Below the pieces are notes generated by a model, which had not been told where the DNA came from, did no database searches, and saw only the letters and a program-made list of their open reading frames with translations. A program made the position numbers and the translations under genes. A DNA stretch of 62,614 nt, the filler included, from Candidatus Babelota bacterium (GTDB lineage Bacteria; JAGOBX01), in the NCBI GenBank assembly GCA_017999075.1. It is 5 parts of 5 records of this genome, joined end to end, with 100 filler letters (N's around TTAATTAATTAA, not from the genome) between each part and the next. Parts side by side here need not be neighbours in the genome. Positions count along the whole stretch, not along the records: positions 1 to 14,866 come from JAGOBX010000032.1; 4 more parts are not named here. One strand, 5' to 3'. Below, one piece after another: positions 3,888 through 13,471 of the stretch. Within the stretch, counting starts at the first letter, position 1, and every line of letters starts with the position of its first letter.

Positions 3888-6128
3888 TTAAAAAATATTA
3901 CTGGGTTTATAAATAACATTTTCATTAATAGAAGCAATGTCCGGGCAGCCTGTTAAGAGCATTGATTTTTCGAGTTGTTTTTTTATATCGTCAATATACA
4001 TTTTCACTCCTGTTTCTCCACCGCCAACCGCATAAATAATTACAGGTCTTGCGATAAGAACTGAGGATGCCCCTAATGCTATTGCTTTTAAAATATCTTC
4101 ACCTGTTCTGAATCCGCCGTCAACAAGAACAGGTATTTTATTATTTATTATTTTTATTATATTTGGAAGTATTTCTATAGTTGAAGGAAGATTGTCTATT
4201 GTTCTGCCCCCGTGGTTTGATACTATTATAGATGAAGCTCCGCATTCTAAAGCTGCTTCGGCGTCTTCTTCAGACATAATACCTTTTAATATAAAATTCA
4301 ATCCGGAATTTTTTATTAATTGAGATAATTCCTGAATTCCCCGCGATTTGGTTTTATTTCCTTTCATAGACATTGTGGTGAACATCAGCGCGTCAACATC
4401 AATCCCTATAGTTTTAACAGAATATTTTTTTGAAAGTTCGATTCTTTCGTAAAGGTCCTTATCATAAAATCTTGGTTTGAAAATAGGAATAGCCCATCCT
4501 CCGAATTCGCTTATTGCCTGAAATATTGTTTTATATTTGTTTGTGCTGGCTCCGTCTCCTACAAATGCTATTGTTCCTGCTTTGCATGCGCCGCCGATAA
4601 CATATCTTGTGTAATCAAGTTCAGATACACATCCGTTTAGATTGGTTACTGCTCCTGTTACAGGAGCTATCATAACAGGAAGTTTTAAACTGTATTCAAG
4701 AAATTTTACAGAAGTATCTATTTCATTTATTGAATGAATAACACGTTGTTTGAGATTTATTTTTTGAAGAGCTTTAACGTTATTTATAAAAGTCTGGCCT
4801 GTGCCTGCTGAACCCATACCAGGCATTTGTCCGGCGCATATGACTCCGTTGCATATTTTGCATATGCTGCATATCCCGTAAAGTTTGCTTTTTGCTTTAT
4901 TTTTTATTTGATCAATTGTTATTTCAGGAGGCGGTCCGACTTCAATATTTATGTAGGACATAGCTTCTTTAACAATGCTTTCAGCTTTTTCCAAAGTTTC
5001 TCCTACAGCAATTATATTGCCTGCTTTATCCATATTTGAAGTAGGAGAATATATTATGTCTCCTATTTCAACTTTCATAAATATGTTTTTTACGCCTTTT
5101 ACCTGTGAGGCTTTTTCAATCCCGTCAATTTTTAATATTTGTCCGGGGTTTGGAATAATAGCTCGTTCAACAGAATAAAAATAATTGGTGAATTTTCTTA
5201 TTATAGGTTTTATTCCAAGGGCGATTTGAATTGCATATTTTATTATGCTTTCACCGGTAGAATACGGAAATGTATATGCAGACATGAATCCGCCGGATAA
5301 CCTTGCGGCAAGTTCTCCGATTTTTGGACCTGTTTCTGTTATTTTAATATCGCCTTTAGCAGCGCCTGTATCGATACCTAATGCTTTACAACCCTTAATC
5401 ATTACTTCAAGAGCTTCATTAATAATTTTCTGATCAAGTGAAGACGGTAAAGTATGACCTATTTCAATAAAATAAGGTTCTCTTGTGATTATTCTGTCTG
5501 CAATTCCGTATATTACAGGTTTGTTTTCCCATAAAAGCATATCTATGCTTAGTTCAGGTCCATTCATATATTTTTCAATGATTATTTCGCCGCTTGGAGA
5601 TGCTGATTTGGCCTCTGAAAAAGCTCCGAACAGTTCGTCTTCATTTGAAACTTTTTTAACTCCGCGGGCGCCCATATTGTCAGAAGGTTTTATAACAAGG
5701 GGAAACCCTAATTTATTAGAAAATCTTATGGCTTCATCGTATGTCCATATTCCGTAAAAATCAGGAGACGGAACTTTATGTTTTTTAAATGCATGACGCA
5801 TTTTTATTTTATTGGTAGCTCGTTCGGCAACTTCAAATTTTAAACCAGGAAGACCTAAAGCGTTTGACACTGCTGCGACTGTCATTGAAGCGTCTGTTCC
5901 GACAGTTATAACTCCATCGATTTTCATGTATCCTGAATAATTTTTTGCTACCCGGACAGCTCCTTCGATATCTTTTGTGCTCATAACTATAGGAATATCG
6001 GCAATCTGCATTCCTATAGCGCTTGAATCGTAATCAAGCACTATTGTCTTTAAACCCATATCGCGCGCAATTCTGATTGCCGGTTCCTGCATTATCCCGG
6101 CGCCGATTATCATTAATGTTTTTTTCAT
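3888..6128 (-). CDS. Fusion of an ATP-grasp ligase domain and an FMN-dependent alpha-hydroxy-acid dehydrogenase domain
   Basis: N-half: 'IIGAGIMQ', 'NKIKMR', 'GFPLVIKPSDNMGARGV', 'IIEKYMNGPELSID', 'IGELAARLSGG'. C-half: 'ILKGIMS', 'VSNHGGR', 'VLVDGGFRTGEDILKAIALGA', 'IARP'. Confidence 0.85.
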   Translation of the reverse strand: MKKTLMIIGAGIMQEPAIRIARDMGLKTIVLDYDSSAIGMQIADIPIVMSTKDIEGAVRVAKNYSGYMKIDGVITVGTDASMTVAAVSNALGLPGLKFEVAERATNKIKMRHAFKKHKVPSPDFYGIWTYDEAIRFSNKLGFPLVIKPSDNMGARGVKKVSNEDELFGAFSEAKSASPSGEIIIEKYMNGPELSIDMLLWENKPVIYGIADRIITREPYFIEIGHTLPSSLDQKIINEALEVMIKGCKALGIDTGAAKGDIKITETGPKIGELAARLSGGFMSAYTFPYSTGESIIKYAIQIALGIKPIIRKFTNYFYSVERAIIPNPGQILKIDGIEKASQVKGVKNIFMKVEIGDIIYSPTSNMDKAGNIIAVGETLEKAESIVKEAMSYINIEVGPPPEITIDQIKNKAKSKLYGICSICKICNGVICAGQMPGMGSAGTGQTFINNVKALQKINLKQRVIHSINEIDTSVKFLEYSLKLPVMIAPVTGAVTNLNGCVSELDYTRYVIGGACKAGTIAFVGDGASTNKYKTIFQAISEFGGWAIPIFKPRFYDKDLYERIELSKKYSVKTIGIDVDALMFTTMSMKGNKTKSRGIQELSQLIKNSGLNFILKGIMSEEDAEAALECGASSIIVSNHGGRTIDNLPSTIEILPNIIKIINNKIPVLVDGGFRTGEDILKAIALGASSVLIARPVIIYAVGGGETGVKMYIDDIKKQLEKSMLLTGCPDIASINENVIYKPSNIF

Positions 6129-6166: not shown

Positions 6167-7051
6167 TTATTTGAGAATTCCTTCATTCCAAATGGCTGCG
6201 CATAATATTGCTGTCATTTGAGAAACTATTGAAACACTGTCGAATTTTTTTGGAATGCATATATTGGCAGCTTCTGATACAATTATAAAATCCCTATATA
6301 ATTCTCTTAAATCGCGTTTTCCCATATCATTCGTGTTTGACCAGTGATTAACGCAATCAACTATAATGTCTTCGTCCTGTTTAAGAATATCGCTTAAAGG
6401 AGAATATTTTTTTGTTTTGGAAGATGATAATTTTGCGCGTTCAGTGATTTCAAGTAAATCGGACATTAAAGATTTCGCATCTTCGGCTGATCCTTTGGCG
6501 CATAATTTTATGAAATCGTCTGTAAGAGTCCATCTTGCAGGTTTATGGTCTTTATTGCTTAATAAAATTGCAAAATATTCCTTGATATTTTTGTTTTTTT
6601 TGTCTACATTCCAGCATCTCTGCTTTAAAAAATTATCGTTGTATTTGCTGAATAAAATATTTTTGTCGATTGGATCGTTTATTATGAATTTTTTTTCAGA
6701 ATCAGAATAACCCAGCAAAGCTATCCAATGATTGAAATTGTCAACACTTAAAATTGCAGGGAAACCGTTCGATATATGTTCTTTAAGTTTTTTTATATAA
6801 ATTCCGCCTTTGTTTTTACTGGAAAAAATAAGAAATTCGCTTTTAACTCCAAATGCTGAAGCAGCGCGTTTTAAAGCTAATTCATCACATCCGCCTTTTT
6901 TTCTCTGCCACCAGCTTAATCCTGTGGAATCAGCTATTTGATGCTGGTTGGCATCTTTTCCAAGTATGAAAAAACAATAACTCATACTGCATGGGCCACA
7001 ATAAGATTCTTCCTGTAACTCCTGAAAAATTGAAAATGTTTCGCCGGACAA
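6167..7051 (-). CDS. Papain-fold (C39-like) cysteine peptidase domain plus unknown C-terminal domain
   Basis: 'QEESYCGPCSM' (Q..C), 'NHWIALLGY' (H), 'IINDP' (D); TTG start preceded by 'caggag'. Confidence 0.7.
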   Translation of the reverse strand: MSGETFSIFQELQEESYCGPCSMSYCFFILGKDANQHQIADSTGLSWWQRKKGGCDELALKRAASAFGVKSEFLIFSSKNKGGIYIKKLKEHISNGFPAILSVDNFNHWIALLGYSDSEKKFIINDPIDKNILFSKYNDNFLKQRCWNVDKKNKNIKEYFAILLSNKDHKPARWTLTDDFIKLCAKGSAEDAKSLMSDLLEITERAKLSSSKTKKYSPLSDILKQDEDIIVDCVNHWSNTNDMGKRDLRELYRDFIIVSEAANICIPKKFDSVSIVSQMTAILCAAIWNEGILK

Positions 7052-7108
7052 TTTTTTTCTCCTGATAGAATAAGTTTATAATATTTTGCGCAGATTTTGA
7101 ATTTGTTA

Positions 7109-8467
7109 TTACTGTTTAACTGCTTTGTTGAACAGCATACGCGTTAAATCTTTGACAATATGACATACTTTATCGTCTGAAGTAATCATATCTTTTATTT
7201 TACCGCATGCATGGGTTATAGTAGCTTTATCAACTTTTCCGAAATCCGTAGATATTTTTTTTAAGCTGAAATCAGTGAGTTCTCTGCATAAATACATAGC
7301 TATATGCTTTGGGAGAATAATATCTTTTACTCTTGTTTTTGATTTTAAATCATCGCAATTTATATTAAAATACTGTGATACCTGTTTTTGGATTTCATTT
7401 ATAGTGATTATTTCAGGCATGGTAGTTATTCGTGCAAATATTTCGTCAATTACTGATTCGCTTATGTTTTTTTTTGTGACTGATAAATACGCTATTAATT
7501 TGTTCGAATATACGTCGATTTTTTTTAAATCGTCTGTATGGCACTGTTCGATAAAATATGATATGAGTTCTTCAGGAAAATACATTTCACATTCATTAAA
7601 TTTATTTTTTATATATTCTGTTTTTAAAGATTTATCTGGATTTTTTATATCTACAACAAGACCTGTTTTGAACCTGTTAATAAGTCTCGGCATAAATTCC
7701 ATAAGTTTATCCGGTCTGTGTTTTGATGTAATAACTAATTGAAAATTGTTTTGAATCAAATCATTGTATATGTTAAAAAATTCTTCCTGCACATTGTAGC
7801 AGCCTTCAAGTTCTTCAATATTTTCCATAATAAATATATCTGCTTTTCTGAATCTTTCGCGGAATTCTATAAGATTGTTTTTGCGCATTGAACTTAGATA
7901 AAGTTCTTTGAAAGAATGTGCATCGAAATATTTTAGGTTGATTTGAGGAAATATATTTTTTACATATTTAGCTATTGACTGAACCAGATGGGTTTTCCCG
8001 CAGCCGGTGTTTCCGTATAAAAAAAACGGATTGAATAATGAACCGAGGTTTTGAGTTACATTTATTGCGCTTATGTAAGCAAATTTATTTGTGTCTGCAA
8101 CAATAAAGTTTTCGAAATCGAATTTTGGTTCAAGTTTATTGATTACTTTGTTTGTATAAAAAAGTTCAAGCTGAACAGGTTTCTGATTATAAGTGCATTT
8201 TAAATTGCCGTTAATCTTTTTTTCACGGATGGAATATTCAATGTTTTTAAGGGGAATACTCATTTTTTCCGCAGCTATAAAAAATATTGAATGGAACAAA
8301 TTTTTTAATTTAGAGTTGAAAAATGAATTTTCTCCTATTATCTGAAGATAATAATTGGAATATTCAAACTCAAGGTTTTCAATCCAAAATTTGTATTTTG
8401 AATCGTCTTTAATAAGTTTTTTTAATTCGTTTTTATATAAATCAGCGTTAAAATTTGTGAACGCCAC
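7109..8467 (-). CDS. Divergent DnaA paralogue (all four domains present, catalytic and DNA-reading motifs degenerate)
   Basis: 'FDFENFIV', 'FNPFFLYGNTGCGKTHL', 'QEEFFNIYN', 'RLINRFKTGL', domain IV 'HIAMYLCRELTDFSL'. No dnaN nearby, and Walker B, sensor I/II and RDHTT are altered, so the dnaA symbol is withheld. Confidence 0.85.
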   Translation of the reverse strand: MAFTNFNADLYKNELKKLIKDDSKYKFWIENLEFEYSNYYLQIIGENSFFNSKLKNLFHSIFFIAAEKMSIPLKNIEYSIREKKINGNLKCTYNQKPVQLELFYTNKVINKLEPKFDFENFIVADTNKFAYISAINVTQNLGSLFNPFFLYGNTGCGKTHLVQSIAKYVKNIFPQINLKYFDAHSFKELYLSSMRKNNLIEFRERFRKADIFIMENIEELEGCYNVQEEFFNIYNDLIQNNFQLVITSKHRPDKLMEFMPRLINRFKTGLVVDIKNPDKSLKTEYIKNKFNECEMYFPEELISYFIEQCHTDDLKKIDVYSNKLIAYLSVTKKNISESVIDEIFARITTMPEIITINEIQKQVSQYFNINCDDLKSKTRVKDIILPKHIAMYLCRELTDFSLKKISTDFGKVDKATITHACGKIKDMITSDDKVCHIVKDLTRMLFNKAVKQ

Positions 8468-8490
8468 TAATTATCACCGGCATTGTATTA

Positions 8491-8638
8491 AAAAAGAATG
8501 GGGATGACCAATAAGTTGATTTTTATAATGTAAATCAATGCTCTGCATTGATTAAACTGTTTAGTATCAACTATAAAATTTTCCTCAAACCTGAGATTTG
8601 AGTTACTTTTTCAACTTATTAGTCAGTCCCAACTTTTT
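8491..8638 (-). repeat. Structured intergenic element: ~20-bp terminal inverted repeat enclosing two hairpins
   Basis: 8500-8519 GGGGATGACCAATAAGTTGA versus 8611-8630 TCAACTTATTAGTCAGTCCC (17/20 complementary). Inner stems 8533-8541/8545-8553 (9 bp perfect) and 8584-8589/8597-8602. Confidence 0.7.
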
Positions 8639-8666
8639 GTTTAAATATTTAATCATGAAAAATTAT

Positions 8667-8740
8667 TACGCCCAAGAGGAGTCGAACCTCTAACCTTCTG
8701 GTCCGTAGCCAGACACTCTATCCAGTTGAGCTATGGGCGC
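8667..8740 (-). tRNA. tRNA-Arg (anticodon ACG), CCA not encoded
   Basis: Reverse complement GCGCCCATAGCTCAACTGGATAGAGTGTCTGGCTACGGACCAGAAGGTTAGAGGTTCGACTCCTCTTGGGCGTA; acceptor GCGCCCA/TGGGCGT, anticodon arm TCTGG-CTACGGA-CCAGA, T-loop GTTCGAC. Confidence 0.97.
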
Positions 8741-8853
8741 AACTTGTTATTTTAACTTTGAATTCCGCAATTTATAAACTGAATAGAATATAATTCTTGA
8801 AATTAAAGTTAAATTATTTTTAATTATTATAATCTTTAATTCTGATATTCCCG

Positions 8854-8881
8854 ATTATAACAAAAAAAAAAATGTTGTCAA
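8854..8881 (-). promoter_or_regulatory. Consensus sigma70 promoter upstream of tRNA-Arg
   Basis: Minus strand TTGACA-N16-TATAAT with extended -10 (TGtTATAAT). Confidence 0.75.
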
Positions 8882-10465
8882 TCAAATTTTTTTTGTTTTT
8901 TTGGAAAATCTTTTTGGTTCAATATTAAATTTTTTTACCCGTAATCCTATTATACGTTCTGTTATGCCGAGTATCTGCGCAGCTTTAGACATATTTCCGT
9001 TTGTTGACTTTAAAGAATCAAGAATCAGTTCTTTTTCAACCCGTTCAAGACGTTCTTCAAGTGTTCCTGTAAAAGTTGTGCCGCTTTCTTCCGCTGTTTG
9101 TAATGTAGGAGGAAGATGATGACTGTGCAGAACATCGTCAGAACTAAGTAAAACAGCGCGTTCTATGCAGTTTTCTAGTTCGCGTATATTGCCTGGCCAA
9201 TGATACGACATAAGCATATCTATTGCAGGAGTGGAAATTCTTCTTATATTTTTATTGTTTATTTTATTGTATTTTTCAATGAAAAAATCAGCAAGAAGAG
9301 GAATATCCGTTTTTCTTTCGCGAAGCGGCGGGAGATGTATTGGAAAAACATTTAGTCTGTAATATAAATCTTCTCTGAATTTTTCTTCACTCATGAATTT
9401 TTCAAGGTTTCTGTTGGTGGCTGCAATTATTCTGGCATTTATTTTTATTGTTGCCGCACCCCCAACCCTTTCAAATTCTTTTTCCTGCAAAACACGAAGC
9501 AGTTTTACCTGCAGGTTAGGAGACAGGTCTCCTATTTCATCAAGAAAAATTGTCCCGTTATCAGCTAATTCAAATCTGCCTTTCCGCTGAGATAAAGCTC
9601 CTGTAAATGCGCCTTTTTCGTGACCGAACAGTTCACTTTCTATAATTGATTCTGGCAGAGCCGAGCAGTTTATTTTTACAAAAGGACCGGTGGCGCGTAA
9701 ACTGCTGAAGTGTATTGCGTTTGCAACAAGTTCTTTTCCTGTTCCGCTTTCTCCTCGTATTAAAACCGTTGAATTGCTTTTTGCAACATGATATATTAGT
9801 TGATATATCTTATGCATTGAATTCGAGTTTCCTATAATGTTAGTTGGAGTTGTTAGATTCTTAAGTTCTTCCTGCAGACGTATATTTTCTTCTATCAATT
9901 GATTATTTTTTTCCTGAAATGTCTGACGCAGTTTAACTGCCTGCGCTATCATAGTAGCTATTATTGAAAGGAGTCTGACATCTTCGTCTAAGGATACAGT
10001 GTCAGCGAATAGCCTGTCCACGCTTAAAGCCCCTATAGTTTCGGTTCCTGTTTTTATAGGCACGCATATGAAAGATATATCTTTTTTTTTGAGATCTGTC
10101 CTTGCGCCGGTTTTGTTTAAAAATAGAGGATTCTTAGAAATTAGAGGTATTACCGCGGAACATCCTGATTGAACGACTTTACCTGTAATCCCTTCTCCAA
10201 GTTTGTATTTTCCGCGTTCCTGCTGATTTTTTGACAATCCGAAAGCAGTTTCAATATTTAATTCACCTGTTTTTCTGTTTAATATTGTAAGAGTTCCTCG
10301 CGTCATTCCTCTGACTTCTGCGAGTTTTTTTAAAATATTATATAATGCTGTTTTCAGATCTGCAGTCAAATCAAGAATTTGGTTTATATCAAAAAGCAGA
10401 GATAATTCTGAAACGGTTTTTTTTACTGATATAGTTTCAATTTTTTCGGATTCAGATGTTTTCAT
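8882..10465 (-). CDS. Sigma54-dependent activator, NifA-like architecture (GAF-AAA+-HTH)
   Basis: N-terminal GAF ('GEGITGKV', 'SFICVPIK'), 'RGESGTGKE', 'ESELFGHEKGAFTGA', 'FLDEIGD', 'WPGNIRELEN', Fis-type HTH 'GNMSKAAQILGI'. Confidence 0.92.
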   Translation of the reverse strand: MKTSESEKIETISVKKTVSELSLLFDINQILDLTADLKTALYNILKKLAEVRGMTRGTLTILNRKTGELNIETAFGLSKNQQERGKYKLGEGITGKVVQSGCSAVIPLISKNPLFLNKTGARTDLKKKDISFICVPIKTGTETIGALSVDRLFADTVSLDEDVRLLSIIATMIAQAVKLRQTFQEKNNQLIEENIRLQEELKNLTTPTNIIGNSNSMHKIYQLIYHVAKSNSTVLIRGESGTGKELVANAIHFSSLRATGPFVKINCSALPESIIESELFGHEKGAFTGALSQRKGRFELADNGTIFLDEIGDLSPNLQVKLLRVLQEKEFERVGGAATIKINARIIAATNRNLEKFMSEEKFREDLYYRLNVFPIHLPPLRERKTDIPLLADFFIEKYNKINNKNIRRISTPAIDMLMSYHWPGNIRELENCIERAVLLSSDDVLHSHHLPPTLQTAEESGTTFTGTLEERLERVEKELILDSLKSTNGNMSKAAQILGITERIIGLRVKKFNIEPKRFSKKTKKI

Positions 10466-10536: not shown

Positions 10537-11829
10537 TTATAGCCTTAAGGAATTATTTCTTATTTCGTAAGGATTATAAATGTTATAACCTGCCGGAATA
10601 TAGGAATAAGATTCATAATTTGTTGAAGGAAGTGAAAATAAATCTATAGGGGTTCTTAAATATTCGCTTAATTCTTTATTTAATATTTTGGTTAATCCTT
10701 GATGCCCTGAAACTGTGTTTTCAAGGTAAGACAGATTTGTGTCAATAGATAGCTCAAGTTTTTTTTCATCAATGGAAAAAGTTTTTTTCTTGAAATCAAT
10801 AGATACGCCAATTTCCTGCAAAGCTCCTGAAATAGGTTTTAAATTATTGAATATGCTGTCAATGGTATTTTTAGAATGAGTATCTCCTGATGATTTAAGC
10901 TCTTCAATAAAAGTAGAAGTGTTTTTTAAATATGAAGAAATTATATATCCGATATATTTTGTGTTTTTGCTTAAGTTTATGTTTTGGGTATCTGAATCCT
11001 GTGATTTCAGCTTTATAAGTATGTTGTATTCTTCGCTAATTATTTCGTTTGAAGGAGATTTGATTTCAGAATTATTTAATGTTATTACAGCATCACGGCC
11101 GATTTGAATTATGTTTTCATCTGCATTAGGCATAAATAAAGACTGTAATTCGCCGATTACGTCTGAAATAACAAAATTGTAATCTTCCCCCGTTTCATCT
11201 GCTGATATGACAAGATGCTTGTTTGATGAATTGAAATTGTCGGAATTTACCGCAGCAGTTAAACCAATGTCGCTTGAATTTATAGAAGAAGCTATTTTGT
11301 TTAGAATTGACGAATATTGTTCGTTATTTGAAACATTTACAGAAATAAGATTGTTGCTTTCAGCTGTCCTGACATTAAAAACATAGGTTCCGTTTTGAAT
11401 CCCTGAATTGGATGATGCAGCAACACTGGTACCTTTTACAATATGATTTTGCGCTGTTTGATTAATCTGGAGCGTGAATCCTCCTTTTGATAAAGGAGAT
11501 GTGATTATTTCTGCAGAACTGTTTCCGTTTGAAATTAATGAATTATAAATAAAATATGCGGATTCAGGAGAAGATAATAAACTTCCAGTTTCAATAAGAT
11601 TGACTGCGCGTTCATAATTTTCATCTGAAACAAGGTTGCTTCTGACATAATTTACATTGAAAGATTTTAAAATAGAAGGAGAAATAAAAGGATTAGCATT
11701 TGGATTTATTGAAAGTCTGACGGAATTTTTAAAAGATTCATTTTTTTCAGGTTCTGTTACAGGACTGTATAATTCGTATGATTTGGTAATTTGGTTTACT
11801 GAATTTAATAATTGAAGTCTTGCATCCAT
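10537..11829 (-). CDS. FliD-like (flagellar cap-related) protein, atypical and orphan
   Basis: 'ILNKIASSINSSDIGLTAAV...HLVISADETG..NFVISD' and 'GRDAVITLNNSEIKSPSN' resemble FliD middle/C-terminal regions. Start moved to ATG 11829 (AAGGAAG upstream). Confidence 0.55.
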   Translation of the reverse strand: MDARLQLLNSVNQITKSYELYSPVTEPEKNESFKNSVRLSINPNANPFISPSILKSFNVNYVRSNLVSDENYERAVNLIETGSLLSSPESAYFIYNSLISNGNSSAEIITSPLSKGGFTLQINQTAQNHIVKGTSVAASSNSGIQNGTYVFNVRTAESNNLISVNVSNNEQYSSILNKIASSINSSDIGLTAAVNSDNFNSSNKHLVISADETGEDYNFVISDVIGELQSLFMPNADENIIQIGRDAVITLNNSEIKSPSNEIISEEYNILIKLKSQDSDTQNINLSKNTKYIGYIISSYLKNTSTFIEELKSSGDTHSKNTIDSIFNNLKPISGALQEIGVSIDFKKKTFSIDEKKLELSIDTNLSYLENTVSGHQGLTKILNKELSEYLRTPIDLFSLPSTNYESYSYIPAGYNIYNPYEIRNNSLRL

Positions 11830-11916
11830 ATCAGAATTCTTCCTTGATTTATAAATAATTCCGAATATATTTAATTTAAATATATTCAAAAATTAAATTA
11901 TTTCCTTATTTATTAT

Positions 11917-11945
11917 AATATACACGATAATAATTGCTGTGTCAA
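11917..11945 (-). promoter_or_regulatory. Putative sigma70 promoter for the FliD-like gene
   Basis: Minus strand TTGACA-N17-TATATT. Confidence 0.55.
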
Positions 11946-11992
11946 GATATTTTTATTTGATTTTTTTGAATTATATTATAAATTATTCAACA

Positions 11993-13471
11993 ATGATATT
12001 ATTAAATTATGCTTTTGAAACGAGTTTAAAAAAAATTAAGTTTAAAAATCAGAATATCTGTAATGTAAAACTTATCGGGAATCATTTATGCCATAAAAAT
12101 CAAATTATTGAGGATGAAAAAAAGTTTTACGGATTTATACTGAAAATACGGATATTCAATAAAACTGAAAAATTTGTATATTTAGTTTTAAACGAACCGC
12201 TCTCCACTTTTTTAGTAAATAATACTGAATTTTTTGCAACTGATTTGAATCTAAAAAATGTTATAGTTAAATTTGGGAATATGGTTATTTCCGAACTGCA
12301 GAAAATATTGAACGTTCAGTTGAAATTGCAGGATATCAGAATTAAAATTACAAATTGCTCCGAAGGGTCGGCTAAAATTAATAATAAATTTTATTACATT
12401 GAATCTGAACATCAGATTAATTCAATATATTCAGGCAAATTAACGATGTTCTATAAAATTGAAGACTCAGATTTCTTAAAATCAAATTTTTTTATAAATA
12501 TTATTCCTGCTGATTGTAAAATAGATTTTCCATCTTTGTTTAATGCTTCAAAAAGCGATATACAGATGATGCTGAATATTTTTTTAAGAAATGGTGCGAG
12601 AATAACAAATCTTGCTGAAATTGCATATTGTTACCCTCAATTGAAAACTAAAATTTTTTCTAATATATCAAAGAATAATAAAAACGTGTTGATTAGATTA
12701 TTAGAAAAATTTGAAAAAGAAGAAGAACCGGAATTGAAAATTAATGTAAATGTTCTTTCTTCGTCTTTAAATGAAAATATAATGCCTGTTATTGCTTCAA
12801 TAATTGAATCTAATAACCTGCAGATTAATTCTTATTTGAAAATTAAAAATTTAAATGATATTTTTGAGTATTATTTGCTTAAACAAAAGTTTTATGATAA
12901 GCCTTTTGAATACTGGCTTGAAATAATTTTTAAATCAGAAAATAAATCTGTTTATGAATCTGAATTGTTGAAAAAACAATATATCATAGGCCTTTGCGAT
13001 ATAGACGAACTTCTTATAAGAACTTTATTTTCAAATCTTTCAGAAAAATCATTTGAAAATTTAATTGAAGATTTGAAATATTTAAAAAAAATTAATTCTG
13101 AACTTGATGTTTTGAAAAGTAAAAATAAAATTGTTTCATTGATAACAGAATATGAAATAACCGATGAAATGTTTGAAAAAACGCGATTGAAAGTTATTGA
13201 ATATTTTCAGGATACAAAAGACGGATTGTCAGTTCAGTTTATAACAAGACAGCTTAATCAGCAGGATTTATTTATTGCCTTGAAATATTTGAACAATAAA
13301 TCTGTTGAACAAAAATTTTTGGATAATTTCAGCAAAAATACAAGAAATGATTATTTGGCATATAATCCAGTGTCTATTTCAAAATATAAAGCGTATTCTT
13401 CTATTAAAAATATTATGAATAAATATATTGATTTATTTGAAAATTCAAAACTTAAAATTGAGAAGATTTAA
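11993..13471 (+). CDS. Protein with three FliG C-terminal-like repeats and a possible CheC/CheX-like N-terminus
   Basis: Repeats 'KIFSNISKN', 'LFSNLSEKSFENLIEDLKYL...DVLKSKNKIV', 'SVQFITRQLNQQDLFIALK...KFLDNFSKN'. ATG 11993 preferred over GTG 11939. Confidence 0.55.
   Translation: MILLNYAFETSLKKIKFKNQNICNVKLIGNHLCHKNQIIEDEKKFYGFILKIRIFNKTEKFVYLVLNEPLSTFLVNNTEFFATDLNLKNVIVKFGNMVISELQKILNVQLKLQDIRIKITNCSEGSAKINNKFYYIESEHQINSIYSGKLTMFYKIEDSDFLKSNFFINIIPADCKIDFPSLFNASKSDIQMMLNIFLRNGARITNLAEIAYCYPQLKTKIFSNISKNNKNVLIRLLEKFEKEEEPELKINVNVLSSSLNENIMPVIASIIESNNLQINSYLKIKNLNDIFEYYLLKQKFYDKPFEYWLEIIFKSENKSVYESELLKKQYIIGLCDIDELLIRTLFSNLSEKSFENLIEDLKYLKKINSELDVLKSKNKIVSLITEYEITDEMFEKTRLKVIEYFQDTKDGLSVQFITRQLNQQDLFIALKYLNNKSVEQKFLDNFSKNTRNDYLAYNPVSISKYKAYSSIKNIMNKYIDLFENSKLKIEKI

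Follow-up and report, generated by a model that had tools for sequence, protein, structure and literature searches.

A diverged full-length DnaA paralogue with a clamp-type linker peptide: a candidate regulator of replication in a small bacterial phylum

Introduction

How the initiation of replication is coupled to replication that is already under way is an open question in most bacterial phyla. The best understood brake on re-initiation is the regulatory inactivation of DnaA (RIDA), i.e. the clamp-coupled inactivation of the initiator by Hda, which to our knowledge is known only from Proteobacteria. A gene on the minus strand of a 62,614-nt stretch of DNA from a Candidatus Babelota bacterium (assembly GCA_017999075.1; this whole stretch is referred to as the window below) bears on this issue. 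It encodes a protein of 452 amino acids (aa) that follows the domain order of the initiator DnaA from end to end, yet differs from it at positions that are otherwise constant among DnaAs, and that carries a peptide resembling beta-clamp-binding motifs in front of its AAA+ module. Is this gene the initiator of its organism and, if not, what might such a protein do?

We argue that the gene is a regulatory paralogue that does not itself initiate replication, a reading to which we assign a probability of about 0.85. The observations concern its architecture, its co-occurrence with a canonical dnaA in sister genomes, its pattern of substitutions, the conservation of its linker motif and its rarity; from them we infer nucleotide binding, a loss of hydrolysis, clamp binding, an action on DnaA and a new DNA target as properties worth considering. 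A literature search, with most subscription papers and supplements outside its coverage, returned no paper that describes this family, nor any that reports a clamp motif in the linker of DnaA or of such paralogues.

A second DnaA beside a canonical dnaA–dnaN locus

The initiator question was tested in two sister genomes, G001 and G002, and the status of the gene in the window's own organism is taken from them. G001 contains three DnaA-family genes: an orthologue that is 86% identical to the window protein and lies on a 31.6-kb contig (C28; L001), a canonical dnaA on contig C12 and an AAA+-only copy on contig C74. The canonical protein has 480 aa and carries the motifs LLIDDIQF, SSDKPP, DRLRNRM and DIRELEG, and its gene is followed directly by dnaN. 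DnaA boxes of the TTATC[CA]ACA type accumulate around this dnaA, with 16 in 11 kb compared to 7.7 expected, a number reached by 0 of 200 shuffles; six of them are found just upstream of dnaA and four in the dnaA–dnaN spacer. The contigs C12 and C28 are alike in composition (GC 0.327 and 0.332; tetranucleotide r 0.978).

G002 likewise encodes an orthologue (57% identical) as well as a canonical dnaA, downstream of which the end of the contig still contains the first 81 residues of dnaN. The related genome G003 has a single dnaA, which adjoins dnaN. In addition, two pairs of proteins that share an accession prefix, each consisting of a canonical DnaA and a paralogue, suggest two assemblies that hold both genes. 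Since both G001 and G002 also possess a canonical dnaA followed by dnaN, the window protein is most simply understood as a paralogue and not the initiator, with the window's organism presumed to resemble its two sister species.

The third DnaA-family gene of G001 is an observation in its own right. Located at L003:1477-2184 (+), it encodes 235 aa that comprise the AAA+ module only, with intact Walker A, Walker B (LLIDDFQF), sensor I Asp and sensor II Arg (DIRELEG), and with a box VII that reads DSLISW and has lost both arginines. It clusters with the canonical DnaA of G001 itself (support 100) and overlaps the beginning of another AAA ATPase gene; no such AAA+-only copy was found in G002.

The window itself offers little that resembles an origin. 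It has 56 open reading frames (ORFs) of 120 aa or longer, 40 of which were scanned; neither a second DnaA-like ORF nor dnaN was seen among them. One-mismatch DnaA boxes number 23 compared to 20.2 expected, with none between 5034 and 13318; the only repeats near the gene, at 6900-9000, are two-copy repeats that do not look origin-like; clustered 9-mers (17 in the window versus 4-16 in 10 simulations) include none that is origin-like; and no clear GC-skew switch is seen at the gene. Inside the coding region of domain I, a stretch of 163 nt (8296-8458) contains three copies of the 9-mer AAAATTTGT, counting its complement (at 8296, 8386 and 8450), which is probably chance in AT-rich sequence. The genes surrounding the paralogue are ordinary chromosomal ones (PFOR, dxs, glmS, gltA, leuA, lpxC-fabZ and signalling genes). 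A canonical DnaA of the window's organism was not found in the protein collection, in which the canonical cluster of G001 comprises four sequences with 99.8-100% mutual identity.

These results bear on an earlier reading of the locus made from the letters of the window (below, the sequence-only reading). Its description of a 452-aa protein with DnaA domains I-IV was accurate, with every motif that it quoted present where it had been placed, including QLELF at nt 8159-8173. Its statement that neither dnaN nor a box cluster lies beside the gene agrees with the ORF and box counts given above, and its verdict that this is not the initiator draws its support from the canonical dnaA–dnaN loci of G001 and G002.

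A full-length DnaA fold

The GTG start of the gene is the first start codon past an in-frame TAA. Pfam recognises the two C-terminal domains of the product (Bac_DnaA, aa 112-273, 1.2e-43; Bac_DnaA_C, aa 356-424, 4.9e-24) and does not detect DnaA_N. The DnaA equivalog model TIGR00362 aligns to residues 13-445 with 318.7 bits, below its cut-off of 343.9, and the Hda models score far lower (TIGR03420, 76 bits with a cut-off of 194.8; NF006571, 47 bits with a cut-off of 297).

An AlphaFold2 model built on an alignment of 60 sequences reached a mean predicted local distance difference test (pLDDT) score of 86.3, with domains III and IV modelled at high confidence. Because TIGR00362 aligns from residue 13 onwards and the first 80 residues are folded in the model, domain I is real despite the missing Pfam match; its W28 (W25 in E. 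coli numbering) is kept in all six members of the family defined below. In Foldseek searches, the best fold matches were the DnaA structures 8btg, 1l8q, 3r8f, 2hcb, 8bv3 and 2z4r, with target-normalised template modelling (TM) scores of 0.89-0.90 between domain III and the DnaA domain III structures 8bv3 and 2z4r, and the Hda structures 3bos and 5x06 ranked well behind. A sequence search of the PDB agrees, with DnaA structures as the best matches. Taken together, the Pfam matches to domains III and IV, the TIGR00362 alignment, the modelled domain I and the fold matches all place the protein in the DnaA domain order I-IV.

Loss and retention of functional residues

To see what has changed within this fold, a set of 255 canonical DnaAs was placed alongside the six family members, with positions numbered after the E. 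coli protein (MG1655 sequence); the E. coli reference motifs LIDDIQ, TSDRYP, DRLKSRF, NVRELE and GGRDHTTV were confirmed on the MG1655 gene. Several positions without a single exception among the canonical proteins are altered throughout the family. In Walker B, D235 is replaced by E and D236 by N in all six (D in 255/255 at both positions), and in sensor II, R334 has become K (R in 255/255). Other positions are replaced in a more variable manner: the sensor I residue D269 is K, T or S (D in 251/255), E204 is H, N, A, E or L (E in 243/255), K243 is C or S (K in 241/255) and R245 is N, C or S (R in 138/255). Domain IV is affected as well, with R407 replaced by K and H434 by K or R in six of six (R and H, respectively, in 255/255), R432 by V, A or I (R in 178 and K in 73 of 255) and G431K/R fixed; D433 is kept in every member. 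By contrast, the Walker A residues K178 and T/S179 are kept in all six, as are both box VII arginines.

We take E204 and R334 of E. coli DnaA to be ATP hydrolysis residues, K243/R245 and V211 to be the basic and contact residues for single-stranded origin DNA, and D433/H434/T435 to read the DnaA box, with roles for R407 and H434 presumed from the literature on the structure 1J1V. On these assignments, the paralogue is likely to bind nucleotide, because it keeps the P-loop, and is predicted to have lost hydrolysis of its own ATP, the grip on unwound DNA and the reading of the standard DnaA box. It can probably still offer an arginine finger, which could enter the ATP site of a neighbouring canonical DnaA because both box VII arginines are retained. 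The protein thus has the fold of DnaA and departs from it in the catalytic AAA+ set, the box-reading residues, the equivalog score and the origin context.

A conserved clamp-type peptide in the linker

The disordered segment of the short linker ends, nine residues ahead of the Pfam start of the AAA+ module, in a peptide that reads QLELF in two family members and QRELF in four. Q99, E101, L102, F103 and T105 are invariant in all six, and the disordered linker around them is variable. In the 45 residues preceding domain III, Qxx[LIM]F is matched in 6/6 family members versus 5/255 canonical DnaAs.

The peptide can be set beside the polymerases of the same lineage. In G001, Pol IV carries QLALF near its C-terminus and a UmuC-like protein carries QQNLF; a UmuC-like protein of G003 has ELNLF, i.e. 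a version without Gln, and no Pol IV or UmuC-like gene was found in G002. Judging from their position and from the E. coli motifs, these sites are presumably clamp motifs, and Q[LR]ELF resembles them. The QQNLF of G001 would therefore mean that a Q-x-x-L-F peptide with a second residue other than Leu is in use in this lineage.

Docking of residues 82-121 of the G001 orthologue (6 alignment rows) onto the dimer of the G001 clamp protein DnaN (30 rows) gave a median score of 0.38 (runs at 0.38, 0.18 and 0.62), with 0.00 for the best of three controls, and was rated as weak support. Among solved complexes, 58 of 80 attain the mark that was applied, compared with 2 of 110 mismatched pairs; passes at 0.60 or below comprise just 7 of the 80 solved complexes together with both passing mismatches. 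Agreement between the runs extends to at least 46% of contacts, the partner pLDDT is at least 39, and no interface was reported.

Canonical DnaAs of this phylum contain related peptides as well. Among the five canonical matches to Qxx[LIM]F, two belong to G003 (QLKIF) and G001 (QITIF), and a further canonical DnaA (P0130), which is the sister of the G003 protein with a support of 99 in a quick tree, carries the hexapeptide QINLPF in the same position, resembling the QLSLPL of Hda. The remaining canonical DnaAs of the paralogue-bearing clade have weaker hydrophobic peptides without Gln (NIVIF, NIGYF, NFLLF and SVDGF). Small as these numbers are, they suggest that the phylum's DnaA probably had the motif already when it was duplicated, and that the motif is now strict in the paralogue and loose in the dnaN-linked copies.

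As a separate observation, a few canonical, dnaN-linked DnaAs have linker peptides of the clamp type, namely QLKIF (G003) and QINLPF (P0130) as above, QLELNLF (G023 and P0252), QLALF (P0205) and QLAVF (P0241). Direct contact between DnaA and the clamp may exist in some lineages; the loci in question include the DnaA genes of G003 (L013:1492-2847) and G023 (L021:1106-2512).

Rarity and origin of the family

The family is very small. Six sequences are known, with orthologues at 56-86% identity, and a word-indexed search returned five relatives (57-86% identical) before dropping to canonical DnaAs at 38% identity or less. Searching 1.84 billion representative sequences with a profile of the six members recovered P0004 (838 bits), the partial P0006 (470 bits) and P0121, a 195-aa fragment and putative family member with 274 bits over 191 residues; canonical DnaAs followed at 271 bits and below. 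At the level of genomes, one GTDB phylum, to which the nearest relatives of the window belong, comprises three species genomes; G001 and G002 have the paralogue and G003 does not, nor does any of the other 38 relatives searched. The GTDB family of G001 consists of two genomes, both of which have the paralogue, and its class and phylum of three. The genomes of this three-genome phylum are AT-rich (loci of 21-33% GC) and of the diderm type, with lpxC-fabZ, a BamD/YbgF-like tetratricopeptide repeat protein and a porin.

The origin of the family was addressed with quick trees and one approximately unbiased (AU) test. In the first tree, the six paralogues branch next to the canonical clade of the phylum, with a stem of 2.6 changes per site (Shimodaira–Hasegawa-like approximate likelihood-ratio support 82), and E. 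coli Hda occupies a separate branch of 9 units, because of which it was left out of the second data set. In the second tree, which contained more sequences, the paralogues fall on a long branch outside all canonical DnaAs. Forcing them into a clade with the canonical DnaAs of the phylum gave a likelihood 10.55 log units better than that of the free quick tree (p-AU 0.72). Duplication within the phylum followed by fast divergence is therefore the simplest, if unproven, reading, since the forced clade is not rejected and has the higher likelihood.

Relation to Hda and to other DnaA-like proteins

Hda, known from the Proteobacteria, with HdaA of Caulobacter, is the obvious protein to compare. Both it and the paralogue are derived from DnaA, and each has, a few residues ahead of its AAA+ module, a clamp-type peptide (6-QLSLPL-11 in Hda, 99-QLELF-103 in the paralogue). 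Their Walker B motifs (CIDNIE and MENIE) have x-N-I-E in common, with D236N and Q238E as the only shared changes; the Hda motifs, i.e. QLSLPL before AAA+, CIDNIE and the SRL arginine, were confirmed on the MG1655 gene. Both also have a box VII arginine finger of the essential type. In other respects they differ. Hda consists of the AAA+ module only, with 233 aa in E. coli and without domains I and IV, whereas the paralogue has both end domains. According to one study, the arginine finger of Hda is Arg153, and Hda retains the sensor I Asp137 and sensor II Arg202 (PMC5397184). The paralogue has R265 as the box VII counterpart of Arg153 and has lost both sensor residues.

Seen in this light, the sequence-only reading overstated its case in calling the protein remodelled like Hda: the shared D236N and Q238E speak for it, the sensor residues that Hda keeps speak against it. 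It had also offered the protein as an intermediate between DnaA and Hda, which finds no support, with a family confined to one family of a three-species phylum, an origin within the phylum that is not rejected, and scores of 76 bits for Hda and 318.7 bits for DnaA. Common descent with proteobacterial Hda is likewise unsupported, given the separate long branch of Hda, the greater likelihood of a clade with the phylum's own DnaAs and the confinement to one GTDB family. The joint conservation of motif, arginine finger and degenerate Walker B and sensor II, which it had proposed to check, is seen in all six family members. As to its further suggestions, a clamp-recruited antagonist that evolved independently of Hda is a live hypothesis, favoured by a conserved Q[LR]ELF that looks like the polymerase motifs and weakly supported by docking, and a re-specified DNA target fits R407K, H434K/R and R432V/A/I, even though no target was found.

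Compared to canonical DnaA (TIGR00362; 8btg, 1l8q/2hcb, 2z4r), the paralogue has the same four-domain fold and order and keeps Walker A, R281 and R285, whereas D235, D236, R334, R407 and H434 are changed, E204, K243 and D269 replaced, and the gene is found away from dnaN and boxes. Second full-length DnaA copies besides an origin-linked dnaA also exist in Chlamydiae (DnaA2) and Planctomycetes; among extra DnaA copies, the present family stands alone in the profile search, with three representatives in 1.84 billion. A similar logic is known from archaeal Orc1/Cdc6 paralogues and from non-catalytic subunits of the origin recognition complex (ORC), some of which keep an arginine finger next to a degenerate ATP site of their own and serve as regulators or structural subunits. 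These proteins belong to another branch of the superfamily and another domain of life, which makes the likeness one of logic only.

Proposed mechanism and alternatives

Tentatively, and at somewhat less than even odds, we propose that the paralogue is a clamp-tethered, Hda-like regulator that acts on DnaA-ATP and arose independently of Hda. A lineage-specific duplicate of the phylum's own dnaA would have ceased to be an initiator. The Q[LR]ELF peptide in its disordered linker would dock into the hydrophobic cleft of the DNA-loaded beta clamp, whereupon the arginine-finger face would engage DnaA-ATP and either trigger ATP hydrolysis, as Hda does in RIDA, or cap DnaA oligomers. Either outcome would couple the shut-off of initiation to ongoing replication. 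Domain I might add a DnaA–DnaA contact, and the altered domain IV might position the paralogue at DNA sites of its own.

A number of points weigh against this proposal. Domains I and IV are dispensable for an Hda-type factor and yet are conserved here, and Hda has the sensor I Asp and sensor II Arg that the family does not. Four of the six members have QRELF, with Arg at the position where the classical motif has Leu. The weak docking pass may reflect memory of the motif, clamp–peptide complexes having been solved. Because clamp-type motifs are also found in the canonical DnaA linkers of the phylum, the motif does not distinguish the paralogue and could be a structural feature of the border between domains II and III. 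The position of the family is unstable between the quick trees, and the canonical dnaA of the window's own organism is carried over from the sister genomes.

The same presence of clamp-type motifs in canonical linkers is why the family, on its sequences, is best seen as a subfunctionalisation of an ancestral motif-bearing DnaA and not as a relative of Hda. Taken further, the ancestral DnaA of the phylum may have carried a linker clamp peptide that coupled the initiator to the clamp without any Hda, after which one family duplicated the gene and split the jobs. The dnaN-linked copy would have stayed the initiator, with a motif that lacks Gln in most members, and the second copy would have fixed motif and arginine finger, lost its own ATPase and single-stranded DNA binding and become a dedicated clamp-tethered switch-off factor. 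We regard this complete scenario as unlikely.

Alternatively, the paralogue may partner with DnaA independently of the clamp, co-assembling through domain I and the arginine-finger face in order to cap, poison or nucleate origin DnaA filaments in the manner of a non-catalytic ORC subunit, with a linker motif that is merely an inherited structural element. Box VII arginines and Walker A kept alongside lost hydrolysis residues, a well conserved and confidently folded domain I, the occurrence of the motif in canonical DnaAs of the phylum and the weak docking pass would all suit such a partner. The invariance of Q, E, L, F and T in all six members within a variable, disordered linker argues instead for a selected peptide ligand, the canonical copies of the paralogue-bearing family mostly lack the Gln, and the loss of H434 and R407 from domain IV makes co-binding to ordinary oriC boxes doubtful, which leaves this alternative fairly unlikely. 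Distinctly unlikely in our view is a retargeted DNA-binding factor, i.e. a regulator of transcription or of the nucleoid that recognises a new site through its altered domain IV, uses nucleotide as a switch and does not act on the initiator directly. It would account for the fixed R407K, H434K/R, R432V/A/I and G431K/R in a retained helix-turn-helix fold with D433 and for a location away from dnaN and box clusters amid ordinary chromosomal genes, yet it leaves the invariance of the arginine finger, R281 and the linker motif unexplained; moreover, the window showed no repeated candidate site in the vicinity of the gene, and its sole conserved neighbour is a tRNA gene. A precedent comes from DnaA itself, which acts as a transcription factor according to PMC13438810.

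That the gene is an initiator after all, whether because the window's organism has no other DnaA or because the protein serves a second origin or replicon, is very unlikely. The full-length architecture, the intact Walker A and the failure to find the organism's own canonical DnaA in the protein collection are in its favour. They are set against a canonical dnaA–dnaN locus in both sister genomes, changes at residues invariant in 255/255 canonical DnaAs, the loss of K243/R245, the lack of a box cluster, origin-like repeat cluster or clear GC-skew switch at the gene, and a 62.6-kb window that carries the housekeeping genes PFOR, dxs, glmS, gltA and lpxC-fabZ.

Genomic neighbourhood

The coordinates of the gene, its domains and motifs and the features upstream of it are compiled in Table 1. 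The only conserved neighbour of the paralogue is tRNA-Arg, the three loci in which the two genes are linked being otherwise only partly syntenic. Hexamers like those of the consensus promoter of the tRNA in the window were also read by eye in G001 and G002. No terminator-like site was found between tRNA-Arg and the paralogue in the window, where a promoter-like site matching 9 of 12 consensus positions lies at 8510-8482; co-transcription of the two genes is possible.

Table 1. Positions in the window of the DnaA paralogue, its parts and its upstream features
Feature	Position	Strand	Remarks
DnaA paralogue, whole gene	7109..8467	-	452 aa; GTG start; stop at 7109-7111
Domain I, aa 1-80	8228..8467	-	Compact helix-helix-strand-strand-helix-strand fold in AlphaFold2 model, pLDDT ~90
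Short linker, aa 81-111	8135..8227	-	aa 84-103 predicted disordered (AlphaFold2)
QLELF, aa 99-103	8159..8173	-	Candidate beta-clamp-binding peptide; family motif Q[LR]ELF[YF]T[NS]
Domain III, AAA+ module, aa 112 to ~345	7433..8134	-	Pfam Bac_DnaA
Walker A, GNTGCGKT, aa 152-159	7991..8014	-	Intact; G152, G155, G157 and K158 in 6/6; T/S159
Walker B, FIMENIE, aa 212-218	7814..7834	-	D235E, D236N, Q238E (E. coli numbering) in 6/6
Sensor I region, TSKHRP, aa 247-252	7712..7729	-	Sensor I Asp (D269) replaced, variable
Box VII, PRLINRF, aa 260-266	7670..7690	-	R261 (=R281) and arginine finger R265 (=R285) kept in 6/6
Sensor II, DLKKID, aa 313-318	7514..7531	-	R334K: K in 6/6, R in 255/255 canonical DnaAs
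Domain IV, helix-turn-helix, aa 356-452	7112..7402	-	Pfam Bac_DnaA_C; includes K387 (=R407K)
GKVDKATI, aa 410-417	7217..7240	-	Replaces DnaA signature GGRDHTTV; R432V, H434K; D433 kept
tRNA-Arg(ACG)	8666..8741	-	Directly upstream of paralogue; linkage kept in window, G001 and G002
Sigma-70 consensus promoter upstream of tRNA	8854..8881	-	Perfect; TTGACA, 16 nt, TG-TATAAT; 12/12, extended -10

A conserved operon partner downstream was considered and rejected: the C39-like peptidase that follows the paralogue has a counterpart in G001 only in the sense of an ORF of equal length (294 aa in both) at the same position and is not shared by G002, where the paralogue is followed by a different ORF of 318 aa, a putative alpha/beta hydrolase. 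In the window, this 294-aa Peptidase_C39_2-like protein (6167-7051, -) is encoded just downstream of the paralogue and upstream of a 746-aa fusion (3888-6128, -) of an ATP-grasp half like L-amino-acid ligases and an FMN-dependent dehydrogenase half, and the two may form a small peptide-modification pair. On the other side of the gene, at 10537-13471, a divergent FliD-like protein (FliD_C only, 1e-07) adjoins a 510-aa protein whose sole match is the C-terminal domain of FliG. A GAF/sigma-54 activator is encoded next to this pair, and flagellar genes are present in the window.

Concluding remarks

The practical value of these findings is limited, as they concern a tiny family in uncultured organisms, and all that goes further than sequences and models is a matter of inference. 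Nonetheless, the family constitutes a natural experiment in which an initiator was duplicated and one copy was stripped of the residues for hydrolysis and for unwound DNA, with the arginine finger and a clamp-type peptide kept. Should the proposed mechanism be true, clamp-coupled control would have evolved from DnaA at least twice and may have begun as a property of DnaA itself. If, in addition, the motif turns out to be ancestral to the DnaAs of this phylum, the paralogue would represent an independent, full-length re-invention of RIDA whose ancestral state is still visible.

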